Positions 84 through 63,715 of a DNA stretch of 64,000 nucleotides are shown here, piece after piece. A model generated the notes under the pieces. That model saw nothing but the letters and a program-made list of their open reading frames with translations. It did no database searches and was not told the origin of the DNA. The translations under genes were made by a program, and so were the position numbers. The stretch comes from a virus, in IMG/VR virus record IMGVR_UViG_3300011008_000022; one strand, 5' to 3'. The stretch's first letter is position 1, and each line of letters begins with the position of its first letter.

Positions 84-130
84 CCACCGTGCCCAGCCGT
101 TCTCGGCTGGGTCTAATAACCCAAAGTAAT

Positions 131-592
131 ATGGAAAAAGAACAAATGAATTTTGATGTTCAGGCCGCTAAGTATCTCGGCCAGATTGAGAAAAAAGAAG
201 TGTATAACCAGGGCGATATGGAAACATGTTTCGTTACTGGTTGTATGGTTGCCTCTGAACTGCAGGAGGATTGTACGGGAACCTTTGGCCAGGCTATCGG
301 CTCTTTGCGCCATGGTAAGCTCGTGGCACGTAAAGGATGGAATGGTAAGGGCATGTTCCTCTTTATGCGTCCTTTTGATAGTCTGGATGATAAGTTTGTC
401 ATCGATACGATGAAGTCGGCACCATTCAATTATAAAGAATGGCTGAAAAACCACCCCTCTGAGGATGGACGTGTCCTCTTCCGTGAATATATCTGTATGA
501 AGGCTGCTGATGGTTCTGTAGTGAATGGTTGGCTCGCCTCTCAGACGGATATGCTTTCTGATGACTGGGAAATTGTTGATCCTAATAAGTAA
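131..592 (+). CDS. DUF2829-like phage protein
   Basis: The ORF track gives 89-592, but the first 14 codons are a GTG read-through of hairpin 92-111; the first ATG is at 131. The motif GKLVARKGWNGKGMFLF resembles the DUF2829 family, recognised from memory. Confidence 0.55.
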   Translation: MEKEQMNFDVQAAKYLGQIEKKEVYNQGDMETCFVTGCMVASELQEDCTGTFGQAIGSLRHGKLVARKGWNGKGMFLFMRPFDSLDDKFVIDTMKSAPFNYKEWLKNHPSEDGRVLFREYICMKAADGSVVNGWLASQTDMLSDDWEIVDPNK

Positions 593-597
593 TCGTT

Positions 598-1215
598 ATG
601 GGAGAAATCAAGGTTACTGTTCCTGATGGTAAGAAAGCCGAATGGAAAGAACTTAATGGCGTTACGGTTTTAACGCTCGTGGATGCTGATAATAACCAGC
701 AGTCAGAGTACGTCCCCGACCCTCGCCCCGTCACAGAACGCATCAAAACTTTCGAGGATGCTTGCGATGACCTCAATCGCCGTGCTCAGGCTGGCGACAA
801 ACTGGCTAACGATCTGATGACCGACCTCCAGTTTAACTCGCCACGTACACCCGACCTGCTTGCTTACATCCAACTGCGCATCATTACCTATGCCCTCAAT
901 GAAGGATGGGTGCCACAGTTTACTGAGGATGAATATCGCTACTATCCTTACTTCTACCTCTATACCCAGAAGGAGATAGACGAAATGAGTGAGGATGATA
1001 AGGCACAGCTGCTGCTCGTCGGGGGTGACGCGGCTTACGGTGCGCAATGCGGTCTCTCGTCTGCGTACTCGTCTCTCGGTTTCTCGGTCTCGCCCGCGAG
1101 CATCGGCGCTCGCCTGGCCTTCAAATCGAGCGAACTCGCGAAATACGCTGGTCGCCAATTCGCTGCGCTATGGTCGGCCCTGGTCTTCAAACCAATTCCT
1201 GAAGAGCAGAAGTAA
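598..1215 (+). CDS. DGR variable protein 2 (remote target, C-terminal C-type-lectin-like VR)
   Basis: The 205 aa ORF has codons 137-175 encoded by VR2 (1007-1122). VR2 matches TR 20052-20167 except at TR adenines. The motif QLLLVGG..G..CG......IGARLAF is shared with ORF 18497-19750. Confidence 0.85.
   Translation: MGEIKVTVPDGKKAEWKELNGVTVLTLVDADNNQQSEYVPDPRPVTERIKTFEDACDDLNRRAQAGDKLANDLMTDLQFNSPRTPDLLAYIQLRIITYALNEGWVPQFTEDEYRYYPYFYLYTQKEIDEMSEDDKAQLLLVGGDAAYGAQCGLSSAYSSLGFSVSPASIGARLAFKSSELAKYAGRQFAALWSALVFKPIPEEQK
1007..1122 (+). repeat. DGR variable region VR2
   Basis: Ungapped 116 nt alignment to TR. There are 19 mismatches, all at TR adenine positions, and all 89 non-A positions are identical. 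Confidence 0.9.
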
Positions 1216-1216
1216 T

Positions 1217-1984
1217 ATGATGAACATTGACACCATATATAACATGGATTGTCTCGAAGGTATGAGGCAGATGGAGGATAACAGCGTAGATGCTGTTATC
1301 ACTTCACCGCCTTATAACTTCGGCTTACGCATCCATTCTGGTAAATATACCAAATGGACGAAGGGTGAGACATTCGGTTATACCGGCCTCCCTGCTAATC
1401 GTTACGACAACCGTGTGAATGATGCGCTGTCAATGGATGACTATTTCAACTGGCAATGTCAGTGTATCGACGAAATGTTACGTGTCAGCAAAGGACCTGT
1501 CTTCTATAACATAATGATGATAACAGGTAATAAGGTGGCTCTGATGAAAATCTTTGGCCACTTCGCTGACCGCATCCGTGATATCCTTATCTGGGATAAG
1601 AAATCGTCTGAACCGGCCATGCACTCAGGAGTGCTCAACTGTGAGTATGAATTTATCATTGCTTTCGATAAGCACGATTGTAAAGGTCGCCAGTTTCCTC
1701 TGTTGAACGCTGAACGTGGTAAACTTTCCAATGTTTTGAGAATTGGAAAGAACCACAAAGGAGGTCATCGGGCAGCATTCCCTACCCTCTTACCTCAGAC
1801 GCTCATCCACTATTTCATGCCAATGGGGGGGGTAATTCTCGACCCTTTTCTTGGAAGCGGCACTACAGCAGTAGCAGCTATCAAAGAGAAAAGTCATTAT
1901 ATAGGCTTTGAACTTCATCCAGAGTATTTCGCAATGGCTGAGAAGAATCTCAAAATAGAATTATCACAACAAACATTATTTTAA
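1217..1984 (+). CDS. DNA methyltransferase, beta-class N4/N6 (SPPY motif)
   Basis: Starts MMNIDTIYNMDCLEGM. It has DAVITSPPYN (motif IV) upstream of ILDPFLGSGTTAVAA (motif I). The track ORF 989-1984 has an N-terminal extension that reads out of frame across VR2. Confidence 0.8.
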   Translation: MMNIDTIYNMDCLEGMRQMEDNSVDAVITSPPYNFGLRIHSGKYTKWTKGETFGYTGLPANRYDNRVNDALSMDDYFNWQCQCIDEMLRVSKGPVFYNIMMITGNKVALMKIFGHFADRIRDILIWDKKSSEPAMHSGVLNCEYEFIIAFDKHDCKGRQFPLLNAERGKLSNVLRIGKNHKGGHRAAFPTLLPQTLIHYFMPMGGVILDPFLGSGTTAVAAIKEKSHYIGFELHPEYFAMAEKNLKIELSQQTLF

Positions 1985-1985
1985 T

Positions 1986-3826: not shown

Positions 3827-4645
3827 ATGAAACGAAATCATATTTCCCGTGCAAAGGCCATAGATGATGGCCGCTGGGTTCAAGGCGAACTGCATACCAT
3901 GACGCATCGCCCACACATCCATATAAACGCCTTGGAGAAAGCCGACATCGATCCCGATACCATTGGGGACTACACCGGCTGGCGTGATAAGAACGATAAG
4001 CCTATCTTTGAGGGCGATATTCTCTCACTGATTATTCCTGATGGAACGGCTCGCCTGTTTGTCGTCGAATGGAAAAACCAACTGCGTCACCTGAAACCGC
4101 TCAAAGGCTTTATCGATGATAATACCCCCGTCGAAATCTCCGGCTGGTGCTTCCGCTGGGGACAGCATCACCTCTTACCCTCTTACATCGGTCATCAGCC
4201 AGACTATAAGCGCATGGAGATTGTCGGTAACATCTACGACAATGCCAACCTCCTGACGGATGATGCAGAAGAGGAAATCGAGGGCAAACGTGAGCTGATA
4301 GGGAACACTTGCTGTATCTCTGACAAACCAGGCATTCAGGTATTCATGTATGATCTGAAAGATGAGCATGGTAGATGGCTCGCTCGTGTCATTCTCACCT
4401 CTGAAGGTCTCTTTATGTCTTACTCTGAATGGGGTAACTTCTTCCATTACTTCAATGCACCAGGCAAAGACGGCATCCGTAAGTTTATGCTGGGCATCTA
4501 TGAAGACTATTTCGCTGGCAAACTCTGTGAAGTGGAATGGAATACCTCTACCACCAAAGTACGAGCTGCTGCAAAGCGTTACGTGAAGCATGTCCTTCCC
4601 GTTCTCAAAGTGGCTATTGAAAATCAGTTAAAGCAGGAAGAATAA
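3827..4645 (+). CDS. YopX-like domain protein
   Basis: YTGWRDKNDKPIFEGDIL and MEIVGNIYDN resemble conserved YopX family blocks. Confidence 0.6.
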   Translation: MKRNHISRAKAIDDGRWVQGELHTMTHRPHIHINALEKADIDPDTIGDYTGWRDKNDKPIFEGDILSLIIPDGTARLFVVEWKNQLRHLKPLKGFIDDNTPVEISGWCFRWGQHHLLPSYIGHQPDYKRMEIVGNIYDNANLLTDDAEEEIEGKRELIGNTCCISDKPGIQVFMYDLKDEHGRWLARVILTSEGLFMSYSEWGNFFHYFNAPGKDGIRKFMLGIYEDYFAGKLCEVEWNTSTTKVRAAAKRYVKHVLPVLKVAIENQLKQEE

Positions 4646-5133
4646 TGAACCAGACACAGCGCAATCCCGTAGTAAGCTCCGATGAGTGGTACACACCCAA
4701 ATGGGTCATCGAGGAGTTAGGGCCATTTGACCTCGATCCGTGTGCCCCTATGTCGCCGCCCTATGAGATTGCGCCACTCTCTTACAACAAACAGCAGGAC
4801 GGTCTCAAACAGGAATGGCCCGACACAGCACTGGTCTTTATGAACCCGCCATATAGCCGTCCGCTGCTGCGTCCATTCGTTGAGAAGTTGGCAGAGCATA
4901 ACAATGGTATCGCCTTACTGAAGAACCAGGTCGATAACCTGCTCTTTCAGGAGGTCATCTTTCCAAAGGCGAAGTCCATGATCTTCATGCGCCATCGCAT
5001 CAAGTTCCTGCAACCTGATGGCACAACAGGCTCACCGTTTTTCGGTTCCGTCCTCGTTGCTTTTGGCTTTGAAGCAGATACTCGCCTGCGCCAATCCTCG
5101 ATACAAGGTAAATATCTAATTCTTAATCGATAA
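4645..5133 (+). CDS. phage Dam-type N6-adenine DNA methyltransferase
   Basis: Motifs SDEWYTPKWVIEELGPFDLDPCA and FMNPPYSR are typical of the small phage N-6-adenine methyltransferase family. Confidence 0.75.
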   Translation: MNQTQRNPVVSSDEWYTPKWVIEELGPFDLDPCAPMSPPYEIAPLSYNKQQDGLKQEWPDTALVFMNPPYSRPLLRPFVEKLAEHNNGIALLKNQVDNLLFQEVIFPKAKSMIFMRHRIKFLQPDGTTGSPFFGSVLVAFGFEADTRLRQSSIQGKYLILNR

Positions 5134-5467: not shown

Positions 5468-6013
5468 ATGAAACGTCCCCGCATCTATCTCTCAGGCCCT
5501 ATCACTGGCACTACCGACTATAAAGAGCGCTTCGAGGAAGCAGCCTTTATTGTTCAGTGTATGGGCTTTAAGCCAGTCAATCCTACCACAATGTTTGGCT
5601 GGCTGCAACCGTTGTTTTCCATTTGCCCCTATCGCTTCCAGGTCTTCGTCGATTGCATGGTACTCGCTATCTTCTGCAAGGCCATCTATCTGATGAAAGA
5701 CCACGACGCATCCAGAGGCGCACGACTCGAAAAGGCCGTGGCCGACTTCCTGAAGATGCACACTGTGCTCGCTGGTTCTGACAGCGAGAAACCAATCACA
5801 GGGGCTATGAAGGCTGTCGCCGATTTGGGCAGGGCATTCGCCTCTTTGAATGAAACAATCATCAAAGGATGGTCCGAAGAAACTAACTGCACCACTTGTG
5901 CTAACAGTCAGCAGAAAACACCGCGTGGCTACTTCTGTCCCACAACGGGCGAAACAGTCAACCGCCGTATGTGGTGTGAGGCATTCTGTCATCGTGACCC
6001 GTCTAAACAGTAA
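5468..6013 (+). CDS. DUF4406 / nucleoside 2-deoxyribosyltransferase-like protein
   Basis: N-terminal IYLSGPITGTTDYKERFEEAA..GFKPVNP and the later ASRGARLE resemble DUF4406. Confidence 0.55.
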   Translation: MKRPRIYLSGPITGTTDYKERFEEAAFIVQCMGFKPVNPTTMFGWLQPLFSICPYRFQVFVDCMVLAIFCKAIYLMKDHDASRGARLEKAVADFLKMHTVLAGSDSEKPITGAMKAVADLGRAFASLNETIIKGWSEETNCTTCANSQQKTPRGYFCPTTGETVNRRMWCEAFCHRDPSKQ

Positions 6014-6054
6014 CCGTGCCCAGCGTTTTTCCGCTGGTCCTAAATAAAAAAGTT

Positions 6055-6891: not shown

Positions 6892-6919
6892 GGTGCCCGC
6901 TGGTTCGTCCAGCGGGTAT

Positions 6920-8312: not shown

Positions 8313-8378
8313 TATATATATAATGTATAGGGTGCCCAGCGATTCAGTCGCTGGTGTCTCTCCGCTCCTACCACCCAG

Positions 8379-8405
8379 CCCAGCCGTTCTCGGTTGGGCT
8401 TTTTT
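8379..8405 (+). terminator. hairpin plus T-tract (rho-independent terminator candidate)
   Basis: CCCAGCCG-TTCT-CGGTTGGG followed by CTTTTTT. Confidence 0.6.
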
Positions 8406-8498
8406 GTGTTGTATGCTGCTATGTTTTAGCAGCCATCCCTCCCCCTAAACGCTCATTTCACATCGAAAAACACCCCCAATCTCATCACACGCATTCAA

Positions 8499-8531: not shown

Positions 8532-10169
8532 ATGAATGGACTACTCGAAATTCTGTCAACGAAGAAGTGGATGATCATGCCGGAGTACGTGCATGGCTCT
8601 CGCACCATGTGGGAACAGAACCTCAATGGTCATATCGCTTTGGAGTTTGACAAAAAGAAAAAGCCATACGCCATGCAGCTCACCAAGGCTTCTGAGGATG
8701 CTGCTCCCGAAATCAAGGAGTATCAGGTAACAGAGCAAGGTAAGGTGGAAAGCCGCTGGTGGATGGAAGACATGGATGCGCCTTTCGTAAACGTCATGCC
8801 GGTGGCAGGTCCTATCACCCGTGAAGGTGGTGCTTGCTCCTATGGCTCGATGGATCTCCGCGACTGGCTCATGGAGGCTGCAAATAACGAGTTCTGTAAG
8901 GCGCATGTATTCGTTATCAACTCGCCTGGTGGTTCTGCTTGGGCTATCAACGACTTCAAACAGGCTATCGACTATGCACACGAACGCGGACAGAAGGTGT
9001 ATGCTTTCGTCGATGGTCTCTGTGCCTCTGCTGCCATGTACCTGGCTTCTCAGTGTGACGAGGTTTATTACATGCACCCTAAAGACATGTTTGGCTCTAT
9101 CGGTGTCATGGCTGTGTTCTACACCGAAAAGAACGGTACGACCAACAAGTACACCAACGAGACGTTCCACGAACTCTACGACCCAGAGTCCTACGATAAG
9201 AATAAGTGGTACCGCGACCTCGCCGATGACCCGAAGAATGATAAGGTGCTCATCGACGAACTGAAAGAGGATGGTATTCAGTTCCGTGCCGACATTCAAA
9301 AGGCTTTCCCTGCTGCTAAGGAAGAGCATATCCATGGAAAGGTCTTCGAGGCTGAAAAGGTCAAGGGCATCCTTTGTGATGGTCAGATGACGCTTGGTGA
9401 GGTCATCACCCGTGCTTTCGAGGTGGCCAACGGCACCGCTACGCCGATTGAGCGCGTCGCTCCTGTCGCTCCTGAAGATGATGTACCCGAACAGGACCCT
9501 GCACCAGCAGCCGAAGCTGCCACCGCTGCCACTCCTGCCACGGATGCCACTGTGCTTGGTGGTTCTGCCACCGAGGGAGAAAAGAATAACCCTTTAAACA
9601 ACGAGAATATGAAACAGTACGAAAAGATTGCCACCGCATGTGGCGTAGATGAGCTGGTAGTGAACGCCGAGGGTGCTCACTTCGTGCCCGACATGCTCGA
9701 AGCACTTAACCAGACACTTGAGACAAATGCCAAGGAAAAGGCTGATGCTCAGACGTTGATCCAGAGCCTGAAGACACAGGTCGGCCAGGTTGAGACTACT
9801 AAGAACGATGCCGTCTCTGCTCGTGAGAAGGAATTGAACGATGCACACGAGCAAGCCATCAACACGCTCAAAGAGGAGCACACCACTGCACTCAATGCAG
9901 AGATTGCTGCTCGCGAGAAGGCTGAGAAGGAACTGAAAGAGGTGAAAGACCAACTGGCTACTGCTAACCAGACCATCACCGACCAGAAGGGACAGATTGA
10001 GCAACTGACAACGGCTGCTGCCGCTGTACCTGCCGGCTCTCCCGCTAACAATGGTCAGGGTGCTCAGGAGCAGAAGGTAGAGGGTGGTATGCCTGCATAC
10101 GACCACACCAAGTCGCCTCTGGAGAACCAGCGCATCCGTAAGGAGTACATGGCTAAGATCAGCGGCTAA
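8532..10169 (+). CDS. S49 (SppA/ClpP-fold) prohead protease fused to a coiled-coil scaffolding domain
   Basis: VFVINSPGGSAWAINDF...GLCASAAMYLASQCD...GSIGVM match S49 peptidase blocks. The C-terminal 185 aa are E/K/Q/A-rich and coiled-coil-like. The gene lies immediately upstream of the capsid candidate. Confidence 0.8.
   Translation: MNGLLEILSTKKWMIMPEYVHGSRTMWEQNLNGHIALEFDKKKKPYAMQLTKASEDAAPEIKEYQVTEQGKVESRWWMEDMDAPFVNVMPVAGPITREGGACSYGSMDLRDWLMEAANNEFCKAHVFVINSPGGSAWAINDFKQAIDYAHERGQKVYAFVDGLCASAAMYLASQCDEVYYMHPKDMFGSIGVMAVFYTEKNGTTNKYTNETFHELYDPESYDKNKWYRDLADDPKNDKVLIDELKEDGIQFRADIQKAFPAAKEEHIHGKVFEAEKVKGILCDGQMTLGEVITRAFEVANGTATPIERVAPVAPEDDVPEQDPAPAAEAATAATPATDATVLGGSATEGEKNNPLNNENMKQYEKIATACGVDELVVNAEGAHFVPDMLEALNQTLETNAKEKADAQTLIQSLKTQVGQVETTKNDAVSAREKELNDAHEQAINTLKEEHTTALNAEIAAREKAEKELKEVKDQLATANQTITDQKGQIEQLTTAAAAVPAGSPANNGQGAQEQKVEGGMPAYDHTKSPLENQRIRKEYMAKISG
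9609..10169 (+). CDS. candidate nested in-frame scaffolding protein (internal start)
   Basis: ATG 9609 is in frame with 8532. It is preceded by hairpin 9555-9575 and TAACCCTTTAAA (9587-9598), which together look like an intergenic junction. Confidence 0.35.
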   Translation: MKQYEKIATACGVDELVVNAEGAHFVPDMLEALNQTLETNAKEKADAQTLIQSLKTQVGQVETTKNDAVSAREKELNDAHEQAINTLKEEHTTALNAEIAAREKAEKELKEVKDQLATANQTITDQKGQIEQLTTAAAAVPAGSPANNGQGAQEQKVEGGMPAYDHTKSPLENQRIRKEYMAKISG

Positions 10170-10210: not shown

Positions 10211-11488
10211 ATGCCTAACAACAACAACGCACCTGAGTTCATCGGACGTGAGGCACTGACTCACGTAGCCGAGCAAGTAGGTAAGCAGATCGTTATGGGT
10301 CCTGCCTACGAAGATCCTGAGTTGCTCGACCGCCTCGGCATTCAGGTAATTTCTGGCGTTCAGTACAAGAAAACTGACCATCTGCTCGTCCGCAAGGGTG
10401 GCACTACCCGTCGTAAGAAGGTAGGTACACCTGTGGAGAACAAGATTGGTTTCTTGAAGGAGCGCACCCTGGTCGCAAAGCTGACCTGGAACCGTTACCG
10501 CGACAACATCGACAACTATGTTGAGACTGTCTTTGGTACCGACGGTAAGGCCGGTGGCGACTATCCTCTCTCTACGGTCGCATGTGAGGCCATCCTGAAG
10601 TCGTATGCCGAGGATTTGAAGTCTAACCTCTTCTTCGGTAACATGGAGTATGAGGAAGAGAATGACGAAGCCAAGCAGAAGCTCTCTCTCTACGATGGTT
10701 TCCACACCGACATTGCTCACGACATCGCAGATGGTATCATCAGCGAGACCAACGGCAACCTCATTCCTTGTGATGCTATCGGAGTTCCTGAAGACGCTCA
10801 TGACTCGACTCCTTTCGACACCGTTCTGGAGTGGTACACCAAGTGGGATGCTCGTCTGCGCTCTCAGAAGGTAATCAAGCTCCATTGTGACATTCTGCGC
10901 GGTATCTATATCGCCCAGGGTTACACTAACAAGTATCACGGCAATGCTAAGGTGAATTATTTGCCTAACGGCAACTTCACCGTGCCTGAGATGCCTCGTG
11001 TTGAGTTCTGTCCTTCTGACGCTTGGGGTGTTGGTACTCGTCTCATGGCGACTATTCCTAACAACCTCCAGTATGGCGTGGATTCTGAGAACAACCAGAC
11101 CTTCGTAAAGGTACAGTTCGGTTCTGACGACGATGCTCAGGATGTAATCTTCCAGATTCAGTCTATCCAGGGTACTCGTATCTTCAACCCATTGGCTTCT
11201 GCATTCGTTATCAGCGATGGTTCGATTGCCGAGAACGTCATCAATGGTGACTACGAGAACTCTAAGCTCGTCGTGAATATCGACGGTACTGGTACCGTTA
11301 AGGTGAATAACGAGGCTTATAACACGCCGCTGGAGTTCGCTCCTAACGCTATCGTAACGCTGAAGGCTATTCCTGGTAACAACCAGAAGTTTGTCTCTTG
11401 GAGCAACGGCAAGACCGACACTGAGATTTCTATCACAGCAACAGGTATGCCGATGGCTATCACCGCATTCTTCGCTCCTGACGAGTAA
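10211..11488 (+). CDS. major capsid protein candidate
   Basis: 425 aa ORF directly after the protease/scaffold gene, preceded by the TAACCCTTTAAA motif. Assignment rests on synteny and size only. Confidence 0.5.
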   Translation: MPNNNNAPEFIGREALTHVAEQVGKQIVMGPAYEDPELLDRLGIQVISGVQYKKTDHLLVRKGGTTRRKKVGTPVENKIGFLKERTLVAKLTWNRYRDNIDNYVETVFGTDGKAGGDYPLSTVACEAILKSYAEDLKSNLFFGNMEYEEENDEAKQKLSLYDGFHTDIAHDIADGIISETNGNLIPCDAIGVPEDAHDSTPFDTVLEWYTKWDARLRSQKVIKLHCDILRGIYIAQGYTNKYHGNAKVNYLPNGNFTVPEMPRVEFCPSDAWGVGTRLMATIPNNLQYGVDSENNQTFVKVQFGSDDDAQDVIFQIQSIQGTRIFNPLASAFVISDGSIAENVINGDYENSKLVVNIDGTGTVKVNNEAYNTPLEFAPNAIVTLKAIPGNNQKFVSWSNGKTDTEISITATGMPMAITAFFAPDE

Positions 11489-11567
11489 TCTCCTCTCTCA
11501 TAGTGCCCAGCCTCTCTCGGCTGGGTACTTATAAACACTAAACGTCAAATATTAAAATTTCAAGATT

Positions 11568-53139: not shown

Positions 53140-53174
53140 TTCATCATTTCATCAATTCATCAATTCATCATATT

Positions 53175-53587: not shown

Positions 53588-55096
53588 ATGAACATGTTTT
53601 CTTATAACTCCGATTTCTACCCCACCCCGAAAGAAGTTATTGCCCAGATGATGATGGGCGAAGATATAGTAGGCAAAACCATTCTCGAACCCTCTGCCGG
53701 TTCTGGCAATATCGTTGACTGGCTCAAAGAGAATGGAGTCAAGGAGGTCATCGCCTGCGAGAATGACCCTACCCTACTCCGCATTCTACGCGGAAAGTGT
53801 GACATCCTGGCTGAAGACTTCCTGACAGTCACCTCCGAACAGGTCAGCCACTGCGACTATATCGTAATGAACCCGCCCTTCTCTCATGGTGCCGAGCACA
53901 TTCTTCACGCCTTCGATATTGCCCCCGCTGGCTGCACCGTCGTGGCCCTCTGTAATAGCAGCAACTTTGACTCTTTCTACCGCAACAAGACCAAACAGCG
54001 CCTCGCCGAGACTATCGACCTCTACGGACAGCGCGAGTCGCTGGGTAATGTCTTCCACACTGCCGACCGTCAGACAGATGTCAACATCGAACTTATCAAG
54101 CTATACAAGGAGGGTGCCGGTGCCAGTGAGTTCGACGGTTATATCTTTGAGCAGTACGACTCAGACACTGCTGGCACTCAGGAAGGACTCATGCAATACA
54201 ACTTCGTGCGCGATATTGTGAACCGTTACGTCTCTGCTGTTCGCATGTTCGATGAAGTTATGGCTATGTCAAAGCGCATCAATGAGGTGGCCGACTTCTA
54301 CGACTTCCGCACCGTCACCGACCCTAAGACCGGCGAAACTCGCCAGGAGCCACAATACTATGGCGGACTGCCTATCACCTTTGGCGCTCAGACCAAGGGC
54401 GAACACCCCACCGCTATCAGTCACCAGCGCTATAAGCGAGAACTGCAGAAGCACTACTGGCACATCATTTTCCAGAAGCTCAACATGGAGAAGTATGCCA
54501 CCCGCGAACTCCGTGAGCAGATCAACCGCTTCATCGAGTCCCAGAAGTGCGCACCATTCACCATGAAGAATGTCTATCGCGTCATCGATATGGTCATCCA
54601 GACTAACGGACAGCGAATGCTTACCGCCCTGGAAGAAGCCTTCGACCTCATTTGCTCACTATCTGCCGAGAACTCCACCGCTGGCGAGAAATGGAAGACC
54701 AACGCTAACTATATGGTCAATCGCCGCTTCATCGTTGACTACATCACAGAGGGTTATTTCTATGGCTCCACCCGTCCAACTGTTGACTTCCCTTGTGGTG
54801 GCCGTACCGACCGCATGGAGGATGTCTGCAAGGCACTGTGCTACCTCACTGGACGCAATTACGACGAGATAGGCCGCCTAACTCAGGTAGGCCGTGGCCA
54901 ACAGTGGGGACAGTGGTTTGAGTGGGGCTTCTTCCGCTGCCGTGGCTATAAAAAGGGCACCATGCACTTTGAGTTCCTGGACGAAGACGTGTGGGCACGT
55001 TTCAATTACGAGGTAGCCGTCCAGAAGTCCAAGACAAAAGGCTGGGACCTCCCAAAGGTCACACCTAAAAAGTCGAAAAAAACAAAAGCCGCCTAA
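53588..55096 (+). CDS. N6-adenine DNA methyltransferase (gamma-class) with large C-terminal domain
   Basis: FYPTPKEVIAQM, ILEPSAGSGNIVDWL (motif I) and VMNPPFSHG (motif IV, NPPF). Confidence 0.7.
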   Translation: MNMFSYNSDFYPTPKEVIAQMMMGEDIVGKTILEPSAGSGNIVDWLKENGVKEVIACENDPTLLRILRGKCDILAEDFLTVTSEQVSHCDYIVMNPPFSHGAEHILHAFDIAPAGCTVVALCNSSNFDSFYRNKTKQRLAETIDLYGQRESLGNVFHTADRQTDVNIELIKLYKEGAGASEFDGYIFEQYDSDTAGTQEGLMQYNFVRDIVNRYVSAVRMFDEVMAMSKRINEVADFYDFRTVTDPKTGETRQEPQYYGGLPITFGAQTKGEHPTAISHQRYKRELQKHYWHIIFQKLNMEKYATRELREQINRFIESQKCAPFTMKNVYRVIDMVIQTNGQRMLTALEEAFDLICSLSAENSTAGEKWKTNANYMVNRRFIVDYITEGYFYGSTRPTVDFPCGGRTDRMEDVCKALCYLTGRNYDEIGRLTQVGRGQQWGQWFEWGFFRCRGYKKGTMHFEFLDEDVWARFNYEVAVQKSKTKGWDLPKVTPKKSKKTKAA

Positions 55097-55236
55097 CCCC
55101 TACCCGCCCCCACTGGTTCCCCCAGTGGGGTGCTCTGTTTCGTTTATTGTCAGGCGATTTTATCGCCAAAACAAAAAAAAATCACTAAAAATCAAAATTT
55201 TATCGAAAAATATTTGGTAATATCAAATTATATTCG

Positions 55237-55792: not shown

Positions 55793-56359
55793 ATGGATAA
55801 ATTTAATTTTGGAGTTATCAGACCATATATGGTCGAAGAACAGCGCATGATAAATCGTTATGCTAACGAGAATGAGGGCACTCTGCCCATGCTGCATTCA
55901 CCTCATATCAAGTTGGGTCACTATGACACTCAGACTATCGCCTCTGTTGCTATGCGTGGTCTTACCCTGAATGGCTGGACGTGTAAGCAAACCTATAAGT
56001 GGTGGCAGGACTATCGCCGCCACCATTCTGCCCTCTATCCTGGCTCATGCTCTTCTGAGGTCTCTTGTGGTCCTAAGATTTTCGAGCGCGTATGGAACAC
56101 GCTGGCTGAATGGCTGCCATATCATCTGCCTAAGATTACCAACAGCCGGTGGTACTATATGAACATCACCGACTGGGACGGACGCAGACGCAAGTGGTAT
56201 TTCGACCGCCCAGACGATGCCACCGCCGTGCATTATTTCTTGCACCATAAAAAATCAGATCACGATATCAACGAATATCATTCCCTTTATTCTGTCACCT
56301 GGGACGGTCAGAATTTCGTCAACCCGAAACGCCTTTCAGTCTCACACAAAGCTGCATAA
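55793..56359 (+). CDS. hypothetical protein
   Basis: 188 aa ORF. It shares the 35 nt leader TTCACCGTTTCACTAAAAAACA with the ligase gene. Confidence 0.6.
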   Translation: MDKFNFGVIRPYMVEEQRMINRYANENEGTLPMLHSPHIKLGHYDTQTIASVAMRGLTLNGWTCKQTYKWWQDYRRHHSALYPGSCSSEVSCGPKIFERVWNTLAEWLPYHLPKITNSRWYYMNITDWDGRRRKWYFDRPDDATAVHYFLHHKKSDHDINEYHSLYSVTWDGQNFVNPKRLSVSHKAA

Positions 56360-56395
56360 ATTCATTCATTCATTATTTCATCAATTCATCAATTC

Positions 56396-56740
56396 ATGTC
56401 ACACTATCTCTACACATTCACCCTCTCCACAGCCACCGGCGACCATGGCCACCAGTACCCGCTACTCACCGCCAACGAATACCCCTGGATGAACGTCCAG
56501 ATTATCCCCACACCCGACTCTCAGCGCTCCCTCATTCTCGAAGCGCTCAACAAGCGGGGTGGGGGAGTGGCCACCGTCTCAGGGCGCACCGACTTCGTGG
56601 CTATCCAGGCCGGTGGCGGTTCCGAAGAGCACCCCACCATCCCTATCACCCGCCAGAACTACCAACATGTCGCCGCCATTCTCCGCGACTGCCTCCAAGC
56701 AGCTGCCGACCACTGGGCCGCTACTCACCCCGTCGAGTAG
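56396..56740 (+). CDS. hypothetical protein
   Basis: 114 aa ORF. Confidence 0.5.
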   Translation: MSHYLYTFTLSTATGDHGHQYPLLTANEYPWMNVQIIPTPDSQRSLILEALNKRGGGVATVSGRTDFVAIQAGGGSEEHPTIPITRQNYQHVAAILRDCLQAAADHWAATHPVE

Positions 56741-56869
56741 AGCGCCCAGCGGTTCCCTTGCTGGTCCTCTGTCCCGTCTCTTTTAGGGCGATTTTATCGC
56801 CAAAACAAAAAAATTAGCCAAAAATCAAATTTTTCTCGAAAAATATTTGGCAGTATCAAAATATATTCG

Positions 56870-57356: not shown

Positions 57357-57417
57357 TCATTCATCAATTCATACATTCATAAAATCATCAATTCATTAAA
57401 TATAGGAGAAACAAATT

Positions 57418-57807: not shown

Positions 57808-59442
57808 ATGACACATTCAGATTATATCAACGCCGTTGGCCGCGCCAACTACTACTCCCACATGTACTATGTCGCATCCGCTCCCGTTGTGAGCGATGCC
57901 GAGTTTGATGCCCTCGTCGCTCAGATCGAGCAGTACGAACGCCTCAATCCCTCACACATTCTCCCAGACAGTCCCACCCAGCAGGTAGGCTCCGACCTCA
58001 ATGGCAATGGCCGTATCGTCCACCGCACCCCTATGCTCTCCTGTCAGAAGGCTCAGGACATCCAGAAGGTTGCTTCGTGGATCAACAAGACCAACCAGCG
58101 CATGAACGCCCTCACCGGCGACAACCACACTGGCGGTTACAAGCTCGTAGCCATGTGGAAGTACGACGGCATTTCTTGCTCTCTCGTCTATCAGGATGGC
58201 CAACTCATCAGCGCTGCCACTCGTGGCGATGGTAGGGTAGGGCAGGACATCACCGCCCACGCCCTCTGCATCCCCTCCATCCCTCAGCAGCTCCGCGAGA
58301 CGGGTGCCACCTACTCCCTCGCCGGTCGTATTGAGGTCCGTGGCGAAATCGTCTGCAGCAAGCGCAACCTCCACCTACTTTCCACTCGTTACACCGATTG
58401 CCGCACAGCAGCTTCCGCTCTCTGCAACCAGTCAGTGCCCGACGCTATCGATCTCGCCATGCTCGACTTCATCCCCTGGGATGCCTATATCGACGACGCT
58501 ATCAGCAGTCAGATTCAGTTCTCTTGCACCCCGCTCGGCTACCCCTGGCATAAGTTCGACTTCCTCCATCGCCTTTGCTTCATCCACCGTCCTGACGTAT
58601 GGACCGCCCACACTCTCGACGATGTTCAGCAGCTGCTGGCGAAGCGTGAGGCAGAACGTGCCGCTTTCGACTTCCCCGTTGATGGTATCGTCCTCCGCAT
58701 CATGCACGATGACTATTTCCGCGCCCTGGGTGCCACCGCACACCATCCTCATGGCTCTATCGCCTACAAGTTCGCACCCGCTAAGGCCATCACCACATGC
58801 CGCCGTATAGAGGTGACTGTAGGTAAGACTGGCAAGCGCACCCCCGTCGCTTACTTCGACTTTGTGACCCTCCTCGACCGCGAAGTACATTCCGCCTCCC
58901 TCTATTCAGAGAAGACAGCCAACGACCTCGGCATCTATCCAGGTGCCACCATCGAGGTAGGTCTGTCAAACGACATCACCCCAAAGGTCTTTCGCGTTAT
59001 AGCCACTGCCGGCGCTTCTGTTTCCTCCGTAGGCGATGGCTCTGCCGTCGCTCCTTCCCAGCCGCTCTCGGCTGGGGTAGGGGACAATGTTACGGAAAAT
59101 AACCCCTTATCTCCCGCCTCTGACGAAGCTCCCGCCGATTGTCCCGTATGTGGCGACACTATTGCCACCGATGACGAAGAGGAAGAAGTCTGGCTCGCCC
59201 CCTCTCTCTTCTCCGACGAAGCTCCCGCCACCGCTGCCCCTGTCGCCTCTGACAAAGAAGCCGCTCCTACCACAGCGCTCGGTGGTTCTCCCACCGATGA
59301 ACCCGCCACCCCTCACCATAGCACCACCGCCGCAGTTCTCGCCACTGTCGCCTGTGCTGCAGTCCTCTGTTGCTTTGGTGCAGTAGTCCTGGGTGCTGCC
59401 GTCTTCTGTCTGCCCCTCATAGCCGGCACCCTCCGCGTATAG
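57808..59442 (+). CDS. ligA: NAD-dependent DNA ligase (LigA) core: Ia + adenylation + OB domains, with a non-canonical tail
   Basis: YYSHMYYVASAPVVSDAEFDAL...DSPTQQVG matches domain Ia. MWKYDGISCSLVY..ATRGDGRVGQDIT carries the KxDG adenylation motif. After about aa 400 the HhH/BRCT regions are absent and are replaced by low-complexity sequence and a hydrophobic C-terminus. Confidence 0.72.
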   Translation: MTHSDYINAVGRANYYSHMYYVASAPVVSDAEFDALVAQIEQYERLNPSHILPDSPTQQVGSDLNGNGRIVHRTPMLSCQKAQDIQKVASWINKTNQRMNALTGDNHTGGYKLVAMWKYDGISCSLVYQDGQLISAATRGDGRVGQDITAHALCIPSIPQQLRETGATYSLAGRIEVRGEIVCSKRNLHLLSTRYTDCRTAASALCNQSVPDAIDLAMLDFIPWDAYIDDAISSQIQFSCTPLGYPWHKFDFLHRLCFIHRPDVWTAHTLDDVQQLLAKREAERAAFDFPVDGIVLRIMHDDYFRALGATAHHPHGSIAYKFAPAKAITTCRRIEVTVGKTGKRTPVAYFDFVTLLDREVHSASLYSEKTANDLGIYPGATIEVGLSNDITPKVFRVIATAGASVSSVGDGSAVAPSQPLSAGVGDNVTENNPLSPASDEAPADCPVCGDTIATDDEEEEVWLAPSLFSDEAPATAAPVASDKEAAPTTALGGSPTDEPATPHHSTTAAVLATVACAAVLCCFGAVVLGAAVFCLPLIAGTLRV

Positions 59443-60359: not shown

Positions 60360-60487
60360 CCCCTATATGTCGTTATAGCGCACCTCAAAAATCACAAAAT
60401 TTCATCATTTCATCAATTCATACATTCATATATTCATAAATTCATAAAATAAACATCATTTTATTTTGTAAAATCAAAATTTATTTT

Positions 60488-60521: not shown

Positions 60522-61385
60522 ATGGCACGTATTAAAGAAATCCTGGCATTCGCCAACAATAAGGGTGGGGTAGCCAAAACCACCACCGTCCAGAACGTCG
60601 CTGCCGGTCTTCTCCGGCGCAACAGTCGTCTGCGCATCCTCTGCATCGATCTCGACCCGCAGGGCAATCTTTCTTCCCTCCTCGGCTGGCGCGATAAGAT
60701 GAAGGAGTACCACGCTAAGAACCTCGCCACTCTCACCGTGGCCGATGCCCTCCGCGATGGCGACAACAACCACCTGCCTGTCTATCAGTCTCGCAAGGGT
60801 CTCTACTATGTCCCCGCCTCTGCCGGACTGTCCGACATCGACCCTGACCTCCATCGTCAGATGCAGTCCAAGCTGGTGCTTTCGTCACTCTTTGGCAATG
60901 ACATCTTCGACATGGACCACCTCTACCTCGGTGCAAAGGCACTCGATGGCGAATACATTGAAGACACCTTCGACTATGTGCTCATCGACTGTGCTCCTGC
61001 CCTCTCCGAACTAACCTTCAACGCGCTCGCTGCCGCCTCTGGTGTCATCATCCCCGTGCAGCTCGGCTCGCTTTCAGTCGATGGCATTGGCCGCATGGTC
61101 GAAGCCTACAAGAATGTCAAGCGCAAACTCAATGCCGACCTCGACATGCGGGGCTTGCTCATTGTCATGGCCGACGAGCGCACCCGACTGGCTCGTGAGA
61201 CTACCGACTACCTCCGCGACCAGTACGACACCACTATCTTTAAGACGCGCATCCGCCAGTGTGTTAAGGTGGGCGAAAGCCAGTTCCAGCATGAGGACAT
61301 CTTCACCTATGCCCCCGAATGCACCGCCTCTCACGACTACCGCGACTTCGTTTCCGAACTCATCAAAACCCAAAATCCTGAATAA
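60522..61385 (+). CDS. parA: ParA/Soj-family partition ATPase
   Basis: Deviant Walker A ANNKGGVAKTTT and Walker A' LCIDLDPQGN. The 287 aa size is typical. Confidence 0.8.
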   Translation: MARIKEILAFANNKGGVAKTTTVQNVAAGLLRRNSRLRILCIDLDPQGNLSSLLGWRDKMKEYHAKNLATLTVADALRDGDNNHLPVYQSRKGLYYVPASAGLSDIDPDLHRQMQSKLVLSSLFGNDIFDMDHLYLGAKALDGEYIEDTFDYVLIDCAPALSELTFNALAAASGVIIPVQLGSLSVDGIGRMVEAYKNVKRKLNADLDMRGLLIVMADERTRLARETTDYLRDQYDTTIFKTRIRQCVKVGESQFQHEDIFTYAPECTASHDYRDFVSELIKTQNPE

Positions 61386-61387
61386 TT

Positions 61388-61732
61388 ATGGCTGTCAAAT
61401 CATTCAAAAAGACTTCCAAAAAGTCCATCGTTGCCGGTTCCCCCGCTATTGAGGAACACGAGCAGATCATGTCCTCCGTCCGTGCTGAGTCTGCCGAACC
61501 TGCTCCAAGCGGTTCTCCCGCTGCCCCCGCTTCCGCTGCGTCAGCATCAGGCACCACCATCGGTGTCTTCTCCACGCTCAACACCGAACCGCTGAAGAAC
61601 GTCCAGACGCGCGTACCGCTCTCTATCTATGAGAAACTGAACCGCATGAAGTATTTTGCCGGACAGCGCACCTCTATCGGCGACATTGTGGCACAGGCCA
61701 TTCAGGAGTATTGCGACCGGCATCCCGTCTGA
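61388..61732 (+). CDS. small partition partner candidate (ribbon-helix-helix-like C-terminus)
   Basis: 114 aa ORF immediately after parA. The C-terminal VQTRVPLSIYEKLNRMKYFAGQRTSIGDIVAQAIQEY looks RHH/ParG-like. Confidence 0.45.
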   Translation: MAVKSFKKTSKKSIVAGSPAIEEHEQIMSSVRAESAEPAPSGSPAAPASAASASGTTIGVFSTLNTEPLKNVQTRVPLSIYEKLNRMKYFAGQRTSIGDIVAQAIQEYCDRHPV

Positions 61733-61747
61733 TTGGGGTGGGGTATA

Positions 61748-61814
61748 GGTTACGCTTTTTTACCCCTAAATTACGTTCCTTATCCCCATAGGGTTACGCT
61801 TTTTACCCCCTAAA
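61748..61814 (+). repeat. two copies of GGTTACGCTTTTT(T)ACCCC(C)TAAA (third copy at 63662-63684)
   Basis: Copies at 61748-61770 and 61792-61814, directly after the par genes. A third copy lies directly after the rep stop codon. Confidence 0.8.
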
Positions 61815-61944
61815 CATGATATATATCTTTATTTATTATATAGTATTGATAAATTTTCTTTTATATGATTATAAGAATATATAATTACCTGCGCCCTCCA
61901 TTGGCTCACAACCCCCGTAAATACTGGCTTTCTGCCGTTTCGGT

Positions 61945-62192
61945 GGGGTATTTCTCCGTAGCCTTCGGTGGCATTCTCCGTAACCTTTGGGCTGTTCTTG
62001 GTAACGGTGGGGTGCATTTCCGGCCACTCTCTTCGTTAGGGGTCATTTTCCGTAACTCTCTCCCCGTTGTTCTCTATGTTGCTATACCATCGCAACTCTT
62101 CTATAAGGGGTCATTTTCCGTAACTCTCCCCCGTCCGTGCATGTGGCTATGCCATAGCCACCAGTCATTTAAGGGGTAAATCTTCGTAACTA
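61945..62192 (+). repeat. iteron-like array GGGGT.ATTT(T)CCGTAAC upstream of rep
   Basis: Copies near 61945, 61967, 62008, 62038, 62106 and 62172. Two are perfect 23-mers, AGGGGTCATTTTCCGTAACTCTC, at 62038-62060 and 62106-62128. Confidence 0.7.
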
Positions 62193-63661
62193 TGGCAAAG
62201 AAAACTGATAAGATGCAGCAGCTCATCAAGTCTGACAATAGCATCATCCGCGAACTCCGCGACCAGAAGTGGATCTACAATCCAAAAGTCTATGCTCAGG
62301 TGGCAGGCGACTTCTCCCTCATGCACCAGCGCGTCCTCATGGGTGTACTCGAAAAGTTGCAGGACCGCATCGCCTATTCTGCTTCCGAACATCAAAAGAA
62401 CCAGCAACTCTGGCTGCCGCTTTTCGCACCAGAGGAAATGAATACCTCCGTTGACTTCGAGATCGAGGCTCGTGACCTGGGTGTCACTCCTGGCCACTAT
62501 CCCGAACTGGCTCAGGCACTCGGCGACCTCGTAAGCATGAAGATAGGCTATCCGAAGAAAAAGGGCAATAAGACCGTCTATGTCTTCGCCTCGCTCTTCT
62601 CTCGCATTGAAATGCCTACCTCCGATAATGGCTGGCGCACCGGCAAAATCCGTGTCAAGATGGATAAGGAGAATGTCAACGACTTCCTCTCTATGGATCG
62701 TGGTTATACCGACCATATCGCCCGCATAGCCCAGTTCTCAAAGAAACAGCGCACACCGCGCATCTATATCTATCTCTCCACCTTCAAGTACAAAGGACGT
62801 AACGAGGTGGAGTACCCCGAACTCTGCGAATTTCTCGGCATCGACGATGCTACCTACGTCGCTACTCATAAGGCCGAGAAACCCGATGTCAAACCTACCG
62901 ACAATCCCTTCCACAAGTTCTCAAAGGTCAAGAAACTCATCCTCGACCCCTCTAAGGCCGAAATGGATGCTTTCTCTGCTGACCGCAAAATCGACTTCTC
63001 TTTCACCTACGAACCGCTCTATAAGGATGGACGCAAAAAGGGCAATCCTACCCATATCGAGTTTGTCATTGTCCCTGGTGCCCTCGGCATCGAACGCGAA
63101 CAGGAACGCAAGCGCCACAACCAGATACAGGCGCTCATCAATGCCCTCACCCGTCAGTGGTCCGACCTCCATGCCTACGACCTCCTCGAAGTCGCTAAGG
63201 ATGTTGCTGATGATTGGCTCGACGACTTCTGCAACTATGCCTATGATGATGTGCGCCGCCAGGTGGAGAAAACACAGCCCGACCATGTAGCCGAATACGT
63301 CCTCACCCTCCTGCAGACGTGGGTCAAGAATAAGACCAACGAGGCTCGCCGTTTGGAGGTAGAGCGCAAACGTCAGTACGACATCTTCGTCCAGCAGCAG
63401 GCAGAAAGCCGGTGGCGTTCGCTGATGCAGGAACTCGGCGCACAGACCCCTCTCCGTGCCCGTCAGATCAACATCGAGCGCTATGACGAAGAAACTCACA
63501 CCCTCACCATCGCCCTCGCCGGCAAGGATATCTACGACCAGATAGAACCTATCACCGACGACCAGGGCAACACCATCACCAAAGGCATCTATCAGGATAT
63601 CTGGTTTTCTCTTGTGCGCAAATACTTTCCCCGCTCCATAGTCCAGTACCGCATGTCCTGA
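62192..63661 (+). CDS. replication initiator candidate (Rep_3/RepB-like N-terminus)
   Basis: SNSIIRELRDQ...FSLMHQRVLMGVLEKLQ resembles iteron-plasmid initiator N-termini. The ORF is flanked by direct repeats. 489 aa. Confidence 0.5.
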   Translation: MAKKTDKMQQLIKSDNSIIRELRDQKWIYNPKVYAQVAGDFSLMHQRVLMGVLEKLQDRIAYSASEHQKNQQLWLPLFAPEEMNTSVDFEIEARDLGVTPGHYPELAQALGDLVSMKIGYPKKKGNKTVYVFASLFSRIEMPTSDNGWRTGKIRVKMDKENVNDFLSMDRGYTDHIARIAQFSKKQRTPRIYIYLSTFKYKGRNEVEYPELCEFLGIDDATYVATHKAEKPDVKPTDNPFHKFSKVKKLILDPSKAEMDAFSADRKIDFSFTYEPLYKDGRKKGNPTHIEFVIVPGALGIEREQERKRHNQIQALINALTRQWSDLHAYDLLEVAKDVADDWLDDFCNYAYDDVRRQVEKTQPDHVAEYVLTLLQTWVKNKTNEARRLEVERKRQYDIFVQQQAESRWRSLMQELGAQTPLRARQINIERYDEETHTLTIALAGKDIYDQIEPITDDQGNTITKGIYQDIWFSLVRKYFPRSIVQYRMS

Positions 63662-63688
63662 AGTTACGCTTTTTTACCCCTAACCGTT

Positions 63689-63715
63689 CCCAGCCTTTCT
63701 CGGCTGGGCTTTTTT
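63689..63715 (+). terminator. H1 hairpin plus T6
   Basis: CCCAGCC-TTTCT-CGGCTGGG followed by CTTTTTT. Confidence 0.6.

Follow-up and report, generated by a model that had tools for sequence, protein, structure and literature searches.

The 64,000-nt stretch of phage DNA analysed here (the window; IMG/VR record IMGVR_UViG_3300011008_000022) carries 49 copies of a short palindromic unit, all on the + strand, of which about 32 are intergenic and about 17 lie inside open reading frames (ORFs) or ORF ends. The unit is about 30 nt long (30–36 nt) and comprises a 5' tag CCAC(C/T)GTG, an 8-bp G+C stem and a TTCT loop; the CCC/GGG base of the stem is fixed, its middle is free but complementary, and its top is mostly GG/CC. 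We give about even chances to the explanation that these units form a family of palindromic repeats resembling repetitive extragenic palindromic (REP) elements and Rickettsia palindromic elements (RPEs), which was amplified in the phage and in which copies followed by a T-run serve as terminators and T-less copies as REP-like punctuation. The hairpins first noticed in the window, called H1, would then be a subfamily that was amplified locally out of a broader set of ~30-nt 'tagged palindromic units', a proposition for which we see the balance as level.

The tagged hairpin unit in the window

Nearly all window genes lie on the + strand, start codons are preceded by A-rich leaders without Shine-Dalgarno sequences, and promoters have the Bacteroidota −7 box TAnnTTTG. 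Relatives of the window with 70–99% identity come from metagenomes that are taken, by their accession series, to be from the rumen; some of these relatives are contigs of 100–104 kb, one of which was binned with a Prevotellaceae metagenome-assembled genome (MAG).

All 31 stem-loops listed in the initial annotation were found at their coordinates. Allowing up to 3 mismatches, there are 20 occurrences of the core 20-mer CCCAGCCGTTCTCGGCTGGG, always on the + strand, and 0 in 100 dinucleotide shuffles; a scan for hairpins with 7 bp or more, a pyrimidine or TTC loop and a GTG 5' flank gave 26 on the + strand and 4 on the − strand, against 0.5 in shuffles. A covariance model made from 38 copies and run without filters gave strong hits (E<0.01) on the + strand only, those on the − strand being weak echoes of the same palindromes. 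Stems range from 8 to 9 bp, loops from 3 to 6 nt and folding free energies from about −8 to −20 kcal/mol. The compensated changes reported for the inner stem were seen within the window as well as at orthologous sites in relatives, and the covariation across units and orthologues upholds the view that pairing rather than primary sequence has been kept.

Other parts of the first description need revision. Both flanks had been called conserved, and the 5' tag does belong to the unit; the 3' flank TC(C/T)TAAA, however, is the phage-wide leader consensus CCYTWAAA, and because it is also present at hairpin-free junctions (24278, 18474 and 10170, for example), the unit proper consists of the tag CCAC(C/T)GTG plus the stem-loop. 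The family had been considered non-coding and intercistronic, which does not hold, as the copy at 59057–59076 had been missed, about 17 more units lie in ORFs or ORF ends, and one window copy in three forms an in-frame part of an ORF. Placing most copies in gaps of 35–50 nt was likewise an overstatement, with about 10 of the 31 in gaps of 41–53 nt and the others in spacers of 60–220 nt or longer. All copies do keep the plus orientation, even beside minus-strand genes, but only two to three of them (43165, 43826 and 43884) are informative in this respect.

The commonest distance to the preceding gene is 8 nt past the stop codon, where 10 of the 32 intergenic units sit. In eight 'tight' units the stem ends 16–19 nt 5' of an ATG, a distance that fits the leader length of some hairpin-free junctions (17–28 nt). 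Units are spaced 31 nt to more than 6 kb apart with genes in between, a pattern on which a CRISPR repeat array, with its unique spacers of constant length, was rejected, and head-to-tail tandem pairs occur in the window only at 16314/16345 and 38117/38154. The positions of the units favour the start codons 17289 and 22655 over the longer ORF starts 17241 and 22291. A role of the post-stop units in read-through, frameshifting or GTG initiation was dropped because an in-frame GTG is inconsistent among the tight copies: in about five of the eight, the GTG of the tag and the following ATG share a frame, which in one of these five is interrupted by a stop.

The 49 units are given below; those inside ORFs follow a common design with a GTG flank, a stem beginning with CCC or CTC and a loop containing TTC, and 'terminator' denotes a putative one.

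51–71 (+): CTC-type unit, GTG followed by CTCGGTGATTCCGTTGCCGAG; 3' end of an ORF entering from the left edge; reads LGDSVAE
84–111 (+): H1 unit, tag CCACCGTG and stem-loop 92–111; intergenic; tag adjoins TAA; 19 nt to ATG 131
5768–5788 (+): CTC-type unit; in ORF 5468–6013; TV-LAGSDSE
6014–6037 (+): H1-like unit, shortened tag CCGTG, CCCAGCG/CGCTGG; 41-nt gap; 17 nt to ATG 6055
6892–6916 (+): variant unit CCCGCTGG-TTCGT-CCAGCGGG; in relatives G-C to A-T, compensated
8336–8354 (+): variant unit CCAGCGA-TTCAG-TCGCTGG
8371–8398 (+): H1 unit with T6 run, terminator; in relatives A-T to C-G, compensated
9555–9575 (+): CTC-type unit; in prohead protease/scaffold ORF 8532–10169; TV-LGGSATE
11506–11525 (+): H1 unit; 17 nt past the stop of ORF 10211–11488
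13534–13561 (+): H1 unit with a single A.C mismatch
15578–15596 (+): CTC-type unit; in ORF 14311–16305; SV-LNGSAVE
16306–16333 (+): H1 unit, TTTT loop; adjoins TAG; ~80% identical relatives have one hairpin, not two
16337–16364 (+): variant unit CCCAGCG/CGCTGGG with T6 run, terminator; then GTCCC-type promoter, −7 box 16398
17245–17272 (+): H1 unit; 16 nt to ATG 17289; in relatives C-G to G-C, compensated
19803–19823 (+): CTC-type unit; 52 nt past the stop of the target gene of a diversity-generating retroelement (DGR); 107 nt 3' of its variable repeat (VR)
21853–21870 (+): degenerate H1 unit TCAGCCG/CGGCTGG; 3' of the reverse transcriptase gene
22610–22637 (+): H1 unit; 17 nt to ATG 22655
23147–23174 (+): H1 unit; tag adjoins TAA; 17 nt to ATG 23192
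29523–29550 (+): H1 unit with T6 run, terminator; adjoins a stop; then GTCCC-type promoter, −7 box 29626
30210–30230 (+): CTC-type unit; in ORF 29694–30923; 12-codon block SPVLGDSVAENE missing in 80%-identical orthologues
30238–30265 (+): tagged unit CCCGATGA/CCATCGGG; in ORF 29694–30923; ATVPDDSPSG
30296–30312 (+): short CTC-like hairpin; same linker of ORF 29694–30923; SGDSVAE
30576–30596 (+): CTC-type unit; in ORF 29694–30923; missing in 55–60% orthologues
33453–33480 (+): H1 unit; adjoins TAA; 16 nt to ATG 33497; 44-nt gap
33807–33834 (+): tagged unit; in ORF 33497–34267; ATVPSASPLG; missing in 58–61% orthologues
33876–33903 (+): tagged unit; in ORF 33497–34267; ATVPDDSPSG
34276–34303 (+): H1 unit with a single G.T pair; 16 nt to ATG 34320; relatives have a palindrome of a second family ('d') instead
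36942–36970 (+): variant unit CCCGCTGA/TCAGCGGG; adjoins TAA; 19 nt to ATG 36990
38109–38136 (+): variant unit CCCAGCG/CGCTGGG; adjoins TAG; T-rich tail, weak terminator
38146–38173 (+): H1 unit in tandem with 38109–38136; then GTCCC-type promoter, −7 box 38215
38842–38861 (+): unit in ORF 38284–40119; TTPDDSSSG
41205–41231 (+): H1 unit, tag CCACCAAT; adjoins TAG; 0, 1 or 2 units at orthologous junctions
41777–41804 (+): H1 unit; adjoins TAG; 16 nt to ATG 41821; replaced or absent in relatives
42995–43015 (+): CTC-type unit; near the 3' end of ORF 42389–43066; TV-LGDSVVE; missing in an 87% orthologue
43034–43053 (+): unit in ORF 42389–43066; SPAASPAG; in relatives C-G to A-T, compensated, non-synonymous
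43110–43133 (+): H1-stem variant with 8-nt loop; T-rich tail, weak terminator
43157–43184 (+): H1 unit, TTTT tail; 2 nt from the stop of minus-strand ORF 43187–43753
43826–43843 (+): variant unit CCAGCG/CGCTGG; between two minus-strand ORFs
43876–43903 (+): H1 unit; between two minus-strand ORFs
44618–44637 (+): unit in helix-turn-helix ORF 44402–44728; TTPDASPSG; missing in 81% orthologues
45285–45304 (+): variant CCCCGCCG/CGGTGGGG with T-run, terminator
46686–46708 (+): variant CCCCACCGA/TCGGTGGGG with T5 run, terminator; weak family membership (E 0.19)
52792–52819 (+): H1 unit; 1 nt past a TGA stop
55107–55130 (+): variant CCCCCACTGG/CCAGTGGGG; weak family membership (E 0.026)
56746–56764 (+): degenerate unit; relatives have a perfect H1 at the site
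59032–59052 (+): hairpin GGCGATGG/CCGTCGCT; low-complexity C-terminal part of ligase ORF 57808–59442
59057–59076 (+): exact-type H1 stem-loop, absent from the earlier list; in ORF 57808–59442 in another frame, PSQPLSAG
59279–59297 (+): CTC-like unit; in ORF 57808–59442; LGGSPTD
63681–63708 (+): H1 unit with T6 run, terminator; 3' of the rep-like gene; then GTCCC-type promoter, −7 box 63742

A wider family with covarying stems

A search pattern with tag, stem base and loop fixed and the inner stem left free (CCACYGTG-CCC-N5-YTCT-N5-GGG) matched 41 IMG/VR viral loci, some on contigs without nucleotide similarity to the window, as well as at least 120 genome loci, roughly two in three of them belonging to MAGs of rumen Prevotella, Prevotellaceae, Bacteroidaceae and Bacteroidales; among the matches listed, several contigs per host MAG often carry the unit. 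In the Bacteroidota matches the free N5 and N5' segments pair at mostly 4–5 of 5 positions (range 2–5), whereas in those from Planctomycetes, Chloroflexi, Actinobacteria and Proteobacteria they pair at 0–3 of 5, as expected by chance, so that the latter provide a built-in negative control. Judged from these sequences, the family is common to the chromosomes of rumen Prevotellaceae/Bacteroidales and to many of their phages. Its strict-pattern density is about 100 times that of host MAG contigs in the window, which holds 11 such matches in 64 kb compared with a handful per MAG. The literature searched, the coverage of which is incomplete, yielded no previous account of units like these from Prevotella or phages.

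In a set of 116 distinct units, taken irrespective of pairing, 93.5% of the cells were paired compared with 75.7% in shuffles (0 of 500 shuffles were as high), and 163 double-sided changes were observed where 38 were expected. The covariation score reached 0.471, where shuffles gave 0.126 and slid registers no more than 0.118, and each of the four inner pairs occurs as 4–5 pair types.

Gain, loss and drift between relatives

The units come and go between close relatives. The junction at 41205–41266 holds 0, 1 or 2 units depending on the relative and another junction 2 or 1, and units inside ORFs are missing from phage orthologues of 55–87% identity. Where orthologous units are retained, compensated double changes were found at 6896, 8379, 17253, 29531 and 43034. 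Stem divergence is 0.32 compared with 0.28–0.31 at third codon positions, hence close to the synonymous rate, and no sign of purifying selection on the primary sequence of orthologous units was found. A fold of −8 kcal/mol or better has nevertheless been retained by 38 of 43 distinct orthologous variants. In relatives of about 70% identity, junctions of this design have retained a hairpin whose stem is different.

Ends of high-scoring segment pairs between relatives fall at gene junctions in 70 of 93 cases. The units were also considered as recombination hotspots or module boundaries, an idea abandoned since breakpoints affect 11 of 24 unit junctions and 14 of 40 others, which is no enrichment. 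Two tagless copies outside the window-matching part of one relative have the opposite orientation, tracking the local gene direction.

Units inside reading frames of phages and hosts

Units inside window ORFs lie in low-complexity stretches rich in P, S, T, D, E and G and are almost always read in one frame, as TV-P..S..G or TV-L..S..E, the exception being 59057. Copies in host MAGs lie mostly in long ORFs as in-frame 10-codon inserts A-T-V-P-x-G-S-P-x'-G. Their carriers include MetH-like, pullulanase/amylase, beta-galactosidase, UvrA, beta-mannosidase, xylanase and ClpB genes as well as valyl-tRNA synthetase (ValRS; three copies), a protein similar to nonribosomal peptide synthetases (NRPS-like; tandem copies) and a SusC-like protein, most of them named by reading the sequences and ClpB and UvrA by computed matches. 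The residue pairs seen at x and x' (D-S, C-Q, A-A, V-T, E-S, I-M, F-K and N-L) are dictated by base complementarity, and it is therefore nucleic-acid pairing and not the peptide that has been kept. In host ORFs both orientations are found, sense copies being in excess by roughly 2:1 in a rough count based on longest ORFs; the excess becomes larger once likely spurious antisense ORFs are discounted. Antisense inserts are read in a complementary frame that is likewise benign, PDGEPSGTV. Of 29 close ClpB homologues 3 carry the insert ATVPDGSPSG, which is missing from proteins 88–92% identical, and UvrA has extra low-complexity residues at the unit in comparison with solved UvrA structures.

In Prevotella amylase/pullulanase and NRPS-like genes, degenerate units form long in-frame arrays with a period of ~36 nt (host MAG loci L078 2047–7123, L121 125–3046 and L164 3400–4900), by which the units can evidently expand as coding minisatellites.

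Terminators, promoters and a second hairpin family

The initial annotation had counted about nine terminator-like copies, and this number stands: T-tracts are strong at 8379, 16345, 29531, 45285, 46686 and 63689 and weaker at 38117, 43110 and 43165. About 40 of the 49 units have no T-run. Just 3' of four T-run sites, within about 30–70 nt, lie GTCCC-type promoters with a −7 box. Six to nine T-run copies probably serve as intrinsic terminator stems of the phage, given the T-run and, at four or more of them, the promoter within about 30–70 nt.

Two classes of promoter, both with the −7 box TAnnTTTG, can be told apart. The class with a GTCCC element has −7 boxes at 12219, 16398, 29626, 38215 and 63742, four of the five directly behind T-run units and the one at 12219 behind a different terminator hairpin; the other class, with a −33 TTTG, has −7 boxes at 47764, 51897, 55237, 56870 and 60488, in the 47–61 kb region. 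The two may reflect a late/early split.

A second palindrome family ('d'; e.g., GTCGCTATGTCATAGCGAC) is near-perfect, with an 8-bp stem and a 3-nt loop, and is often preceded by GTAT. It occurs at 2366–2384, 8415–8433, 29573–29591, 29658–29676, 37265–37283, 38245–38263, 40128–40146, 43794–43810, 43852–43870, 44792–44810, 59150–59168, 62143–62161 and 63810–63828, several of these palindromes stopping 17–20 nt 5' of an ATG, and its role could be that of an operator or of a hairpin at 5' ends. In relatives, family d stands in place of H1 at 34284 and 41785 and is added at 17253.

Comparison with known palindromic elements

Among the candidates proposed earlier, REP elements come closest, being tagged short palindromes in many copies behind genes. 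Tagged REPs of the GTAG and CGTC superfamilies, the latter including RPE-4/6, have stems of 6–13 bp and loops of 2–5 nt and sometimes lie in ORFs or supply stop codons (Di Nocera et al. 2013, PMC3733652). Like the window units they measure 20–40 nt, have G+C stems and an unpaired end tag, occur in many copies whose sub-families are set apart by compensated stem changes, and are found mostly just behind genes in co-directional operons, with ends that abut or supply stops, and in some cases in ORFs; roles in mRNA 3' protection and termination have been proposed for them (PMC3733652). The window units share the short G+C palindromic stem-loop and the many copies with a consensus (49 in 64 kb). 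They differ in that their tag, CCAC(C/T)GTG, stands 5' of the stem and is not GTAG/CGTC, and in having one orientation without inverted dimers of the bacterial interspersed mosaic element (BIME) or REPIN kind. Nor are they extragenic only, about 17 of the 49 window units and most detected host copies lying in ORFs, and no REP-associated tyrosine transposase (RAYT) was seen in a search confined to about 50 window ORFs; the association with RAYT, an IS200/IS605-type Y1 transposase, holds for GTAG REPs only. The family is densest in a phage, a case not found in the papers searched. Because of these features (tag, dimers, intragenic copies and RAYT), the units are set apart from described REP/RPE members.

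RPEs were reportedly described by Ogata et al. in 2000 as in-frame elements in protein genes. Both they and the units here are found in frame in unrelated genes, essential ones included, where they add a short peptide at tolerated sites, and both also occur in non-coding DNA; in-frame palindromic inserts missing from close orthologues were found here in ClpB, UvrA, ValRS, beta-galactosidase, amylase and others, and in phage proteins. RPEs, however, measure about 100–150 bp and are confined to Rickettsia, while the present units of 30–36 nt occur in Bacteroidota and phages and have a strongly preferred frame.

Phage T4 is said to have intercistronic C(UUCG)G hairpins (Tuerk et al., in 1988), and T4-type phages PeSL cassettes of stem-loop plus early promoter that are linked to module shuffling (reportedly Arbiol et al., in 2010). 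The resemblance lies in many stable tetraloop hairpins between cistrons and in the pairing of promoter and stem-loop at gene boundaries. The T4 hairpins are defined by their loop, lack a tag and, unlike the units here, are not known in ORFs or host chromosomes; PeSL cassettes are tied to module shuffling, whereas the window units show no breakpoint enrichment. Rho-independent terminators resemble the six to nine T-run units at operon ends 5' of promoters (a U/T run follows the hairpin within 0–2 nt in 6 units and weakly in 3), and are unlike the other ~40, which lack it, and the third of units in ORFs. A DGR target-site hairpin was rejected, as only 19803–19823 lies near the VR (107 nt 3') and the other 48 units are unrelated to VR or template repeat. 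Hairpins of the NusG-paralogue ops/pause type, which in Bacteroides occur once per operon leader 5' of a consensus pause, likewise misfit 49 dispersed copies (PMC11685472).

Weighing the explanations

The REP/RPE-like explanation builds on the units' membership in a family, the covariation of their pairing, their insertion and deletion dynamics, their distribution over hosts and phages and their terminator and promoter context, all of which the comparisons above establish. Under it, units would be gained, lost, swapped and tandem-stacked between close relatives like REP/RPE palindromic DNA, spreading, we infer, by copy-and-paste or gene conversion via a single-stranded hairpin, and would persist where tolerated, that is, just behind stops before the A-rich leader or as ~10–12 codons in disordered loops. 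As all 49 point along nearly all genes, each would be transcribed, giving a hairpin of about −8 to −20 kcal/mol. By analogy with REPs, the T-less intercistronic copies most likely affect the polycistronic mRNA, where 3' exonucleases would be halted or the leader insulated, while copies in ORFs would be tolerated passengers.

Several points weigh against this explanation. The effect of the units on RNA is something we only infer, and orthologous units drift at the synonymous rate, which fits neutral passengers equally. Among non-Watson-Crick inner pairs there are 23 G.T and 25 A.C, so that the G.U wobble excess sought as a mark of RNA-level selection is missing. The scan of roughly 50 window ORFs revealed neither an HUH/Y1 (RAYT-like) transposase nor another mobilising enzyme, and the loci examined showed no REPtron-like arrangement and no gene flanked by inverted units. 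With a tag that is neither GTAG nor CGTC and without inverted dimers, the units fall outside the described REP superfamilies. The single orientation, kept even between minus-strand ORFs, could equally come from a DNA-strand-specific process, and a more specific role 5' of the leader is hinted at by the fixed spacing of 16–19 nt before the ATG and by the second hairpin family, with which the units are exchanged at the same sites.

It is possible, although we regard it as rather doubtful, that the unit family moves between chromosomes and phages of rumen Prevotellaceae and that a ~100-kb DGR phage, probably plasmid-like, multiplied it ~100-fold and domesticated it as operon punctuation, the phage being vector and main beneficiary. 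Terminator stems, together with hairpins placed 16–19 nt before starts that lack a Shine-Dalgarno sequence, would then protect or insulate each cistron, and in hosts the units would write 10-residue loops into essential proteins.

Because G.T is not above A.C and drift proceeds at the synonymous rate, readings as neutral passengers or as DNA-strand elements retain some probability. That the units are selfish passengers, mobile or gene-converting palindromes without a role in the phage except for those before T-runs, we consider unlikely; post-stop and linker positions would then simply be those where insertions survive. Divergence at the synonymous rate, mismatches without G.T excess, variation in presence and tandem copy number between close relatives, and in-frame inserts of the same units in host housekeeping genes would all follow, and the hairpin-free junctions, in retaining a 17–28 nt leader, make the unit appear as a plain insertion between stop and leader. 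Harder to reconcile with passengers are a density ~100 times that of host MAG contigs, the 38 of 43 orthologous variants that are still stable hairpins despite fast change, the differently stemmed hairpins retained at similarly designed junctions in ~70% identical relatives, and the other hairpin family that substitutes at the same sites. An improbable alternative is a single-stranded DNA hairpin acting in replication or packaging (priming, nicking or as HUH substrate), which would set the orientation. It agrees with 49 of 49 copies on one strand, including 43826 and 43884 between minus-strand ORFs, with the lack of G.T excess, with a GC skew of the + strand that is steadily negative from about 22 kb to the rep/iteron end, and with host in-ORF copies in both orientations at a rough 2:1 sense excess; yet no candidate enzyme appears among the window ORFs scanned, the two tagless copies in a relative are reversed along with the local genes, and breakpoints are not enriched at unit junctions (11/24 against 14/40).

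The initial annotation had also suggested mRNA processing sites like those cut by RNase III in T7, binding sites for a phage protein and leaky attenuators. RNase III processing substrates are duplexes of two helical turns (~20 bp), often with an internal loop, for which stems of 8–9 bp that do not extend into the flanks are too short, and the presence of the tagged hairpin in unrelated phages and host housekeeping genes speaks against a site for a phage RNA- or DNA-binding protein. A phage RNA-binding protein or endoribonuclease that reads the tag together with the stem and the TTCT loop, and acts at each junction of the polycistronic mRNA by processing or regulation, could explain why the single-stranded tag and loop are conserved while stems covary, the strict sense orientation and the 8 copies with 16–19 nt from stem to ATG. 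This is nevertheless quite improbable, since a third of the window copies lie in ORFs, where cleavage would destroy the message, the tagged unit also occurs in unrelated phages and in chromosomal ClpB, UvrA, ValRS and glycosidase genes, a scan of ~50 ORFs gave no RNA-binding or RNase domain, and no Rfam family matches. The units are accordingly unlikely to have a dedicated role as sites for a phage protein or RNase, host and in-ORF copies and the 8–9 bp stems being the grounds. Very improbable, too, is that every copy is a terminator or leaky attenuator setting the stoichiometry of late proteins: G+C hairpins of −10 to −20 kcal/mol just 3' of stops and nine T-rich tails fit, but ~40 of 49 copies have no T-run and those in ORFs would truncate their own genes. 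B. thetaiotaomicron has 783 canonical hairpin-plus-U terminators predicted by RNIE (PMC3152330), and with so many in a Bacteroides genome there is no reason to assume termination without a U-tract. There is finally next to no probability that the in-ORF copies are a peptide motif (a linker, a prohead-protease site xxE or a sorting signal) with the hairpin as a by-product of codons. The fixed frame, the recurrent TVLGDSVAE and ATVPDGSPSG and the prohead protease encoded at 8532–10169 had pointed that way, and the motif was ruled out on residue pairs (F-K, I-M, C-Q, D-S) that obey base complementarity and not chemistry, on compensated changes that are non-synonymous on both sides (PAASPAG to PDASPSG), and on identical units in untranslated spacers and the antisense frame.

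Phage setting

Megablast of 20 kb of the window against 50,697 GenBank phage records gave no match, no tRNA genes were found in the window, and an Rfam scan of it returned 0 matches at or above the gathering threshold. The recognisable gene set includes a prohead protease, an amidase and a holin, together with three DNA methylases, an NAD ligase, a Tad2-like gene, a DGR, ParA and a Rep-like gene with iteron-like repeats. The DGR (18497–21849) is complete, with its VR (19578–19696) at the 3' end of ORF 18497–19750, its template repeat at 20052–20170 and its reverse transcriptase (RVT_1) at 20503–21849; every mismatch in the repeat core is at a template adenine. A ParA-type ATPase (60522–61385) and a Rep-like initiator (62192–63661) enclose a 460-nt spacer with iteron-like repeats (61733–62191), and this region, 60522–63661, may mean plasmid-style maintenance of the phage. 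The Tad2-like (anti-Thoeris) gene and the three DNA methyltransferase genes (131–592, 1217–1984, 4645–5133 and 53588–55096) look like an anti-defence arsenal. A 1.35-kb region without convincing ORFs (46476–47825) contains tandem repeats of 39, 21/42 and 44 nt, and between 51500 and 60450 many leaders are tandem 8-nt TTCATnAA repeats immediately 5' of start codons (e.g., 53138–53170, 56355–56397, 57358–57401 and 60401–60448).

Implications

How REP-like repeats arise, move and function is, to our knowledge, still largely unsettled, and a family common to a host clade and its phages, with a simple signature and presence/absence polymorphism, offers a tractable system for their origin and spread. 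In the annotation of rumen Prevotella MAGs, the in-frame copies account for odd low-complexity inserts in housekeeping proteins, and in phage annotation the units flag terminators, operon boundaries and true starts (e.g., 17289 and 22655). If the T-less copies shape mRNA stability or access to starts that lack a Shine-Dalgarno sequence, they would be useful parts for engineering in Bacteroidota.

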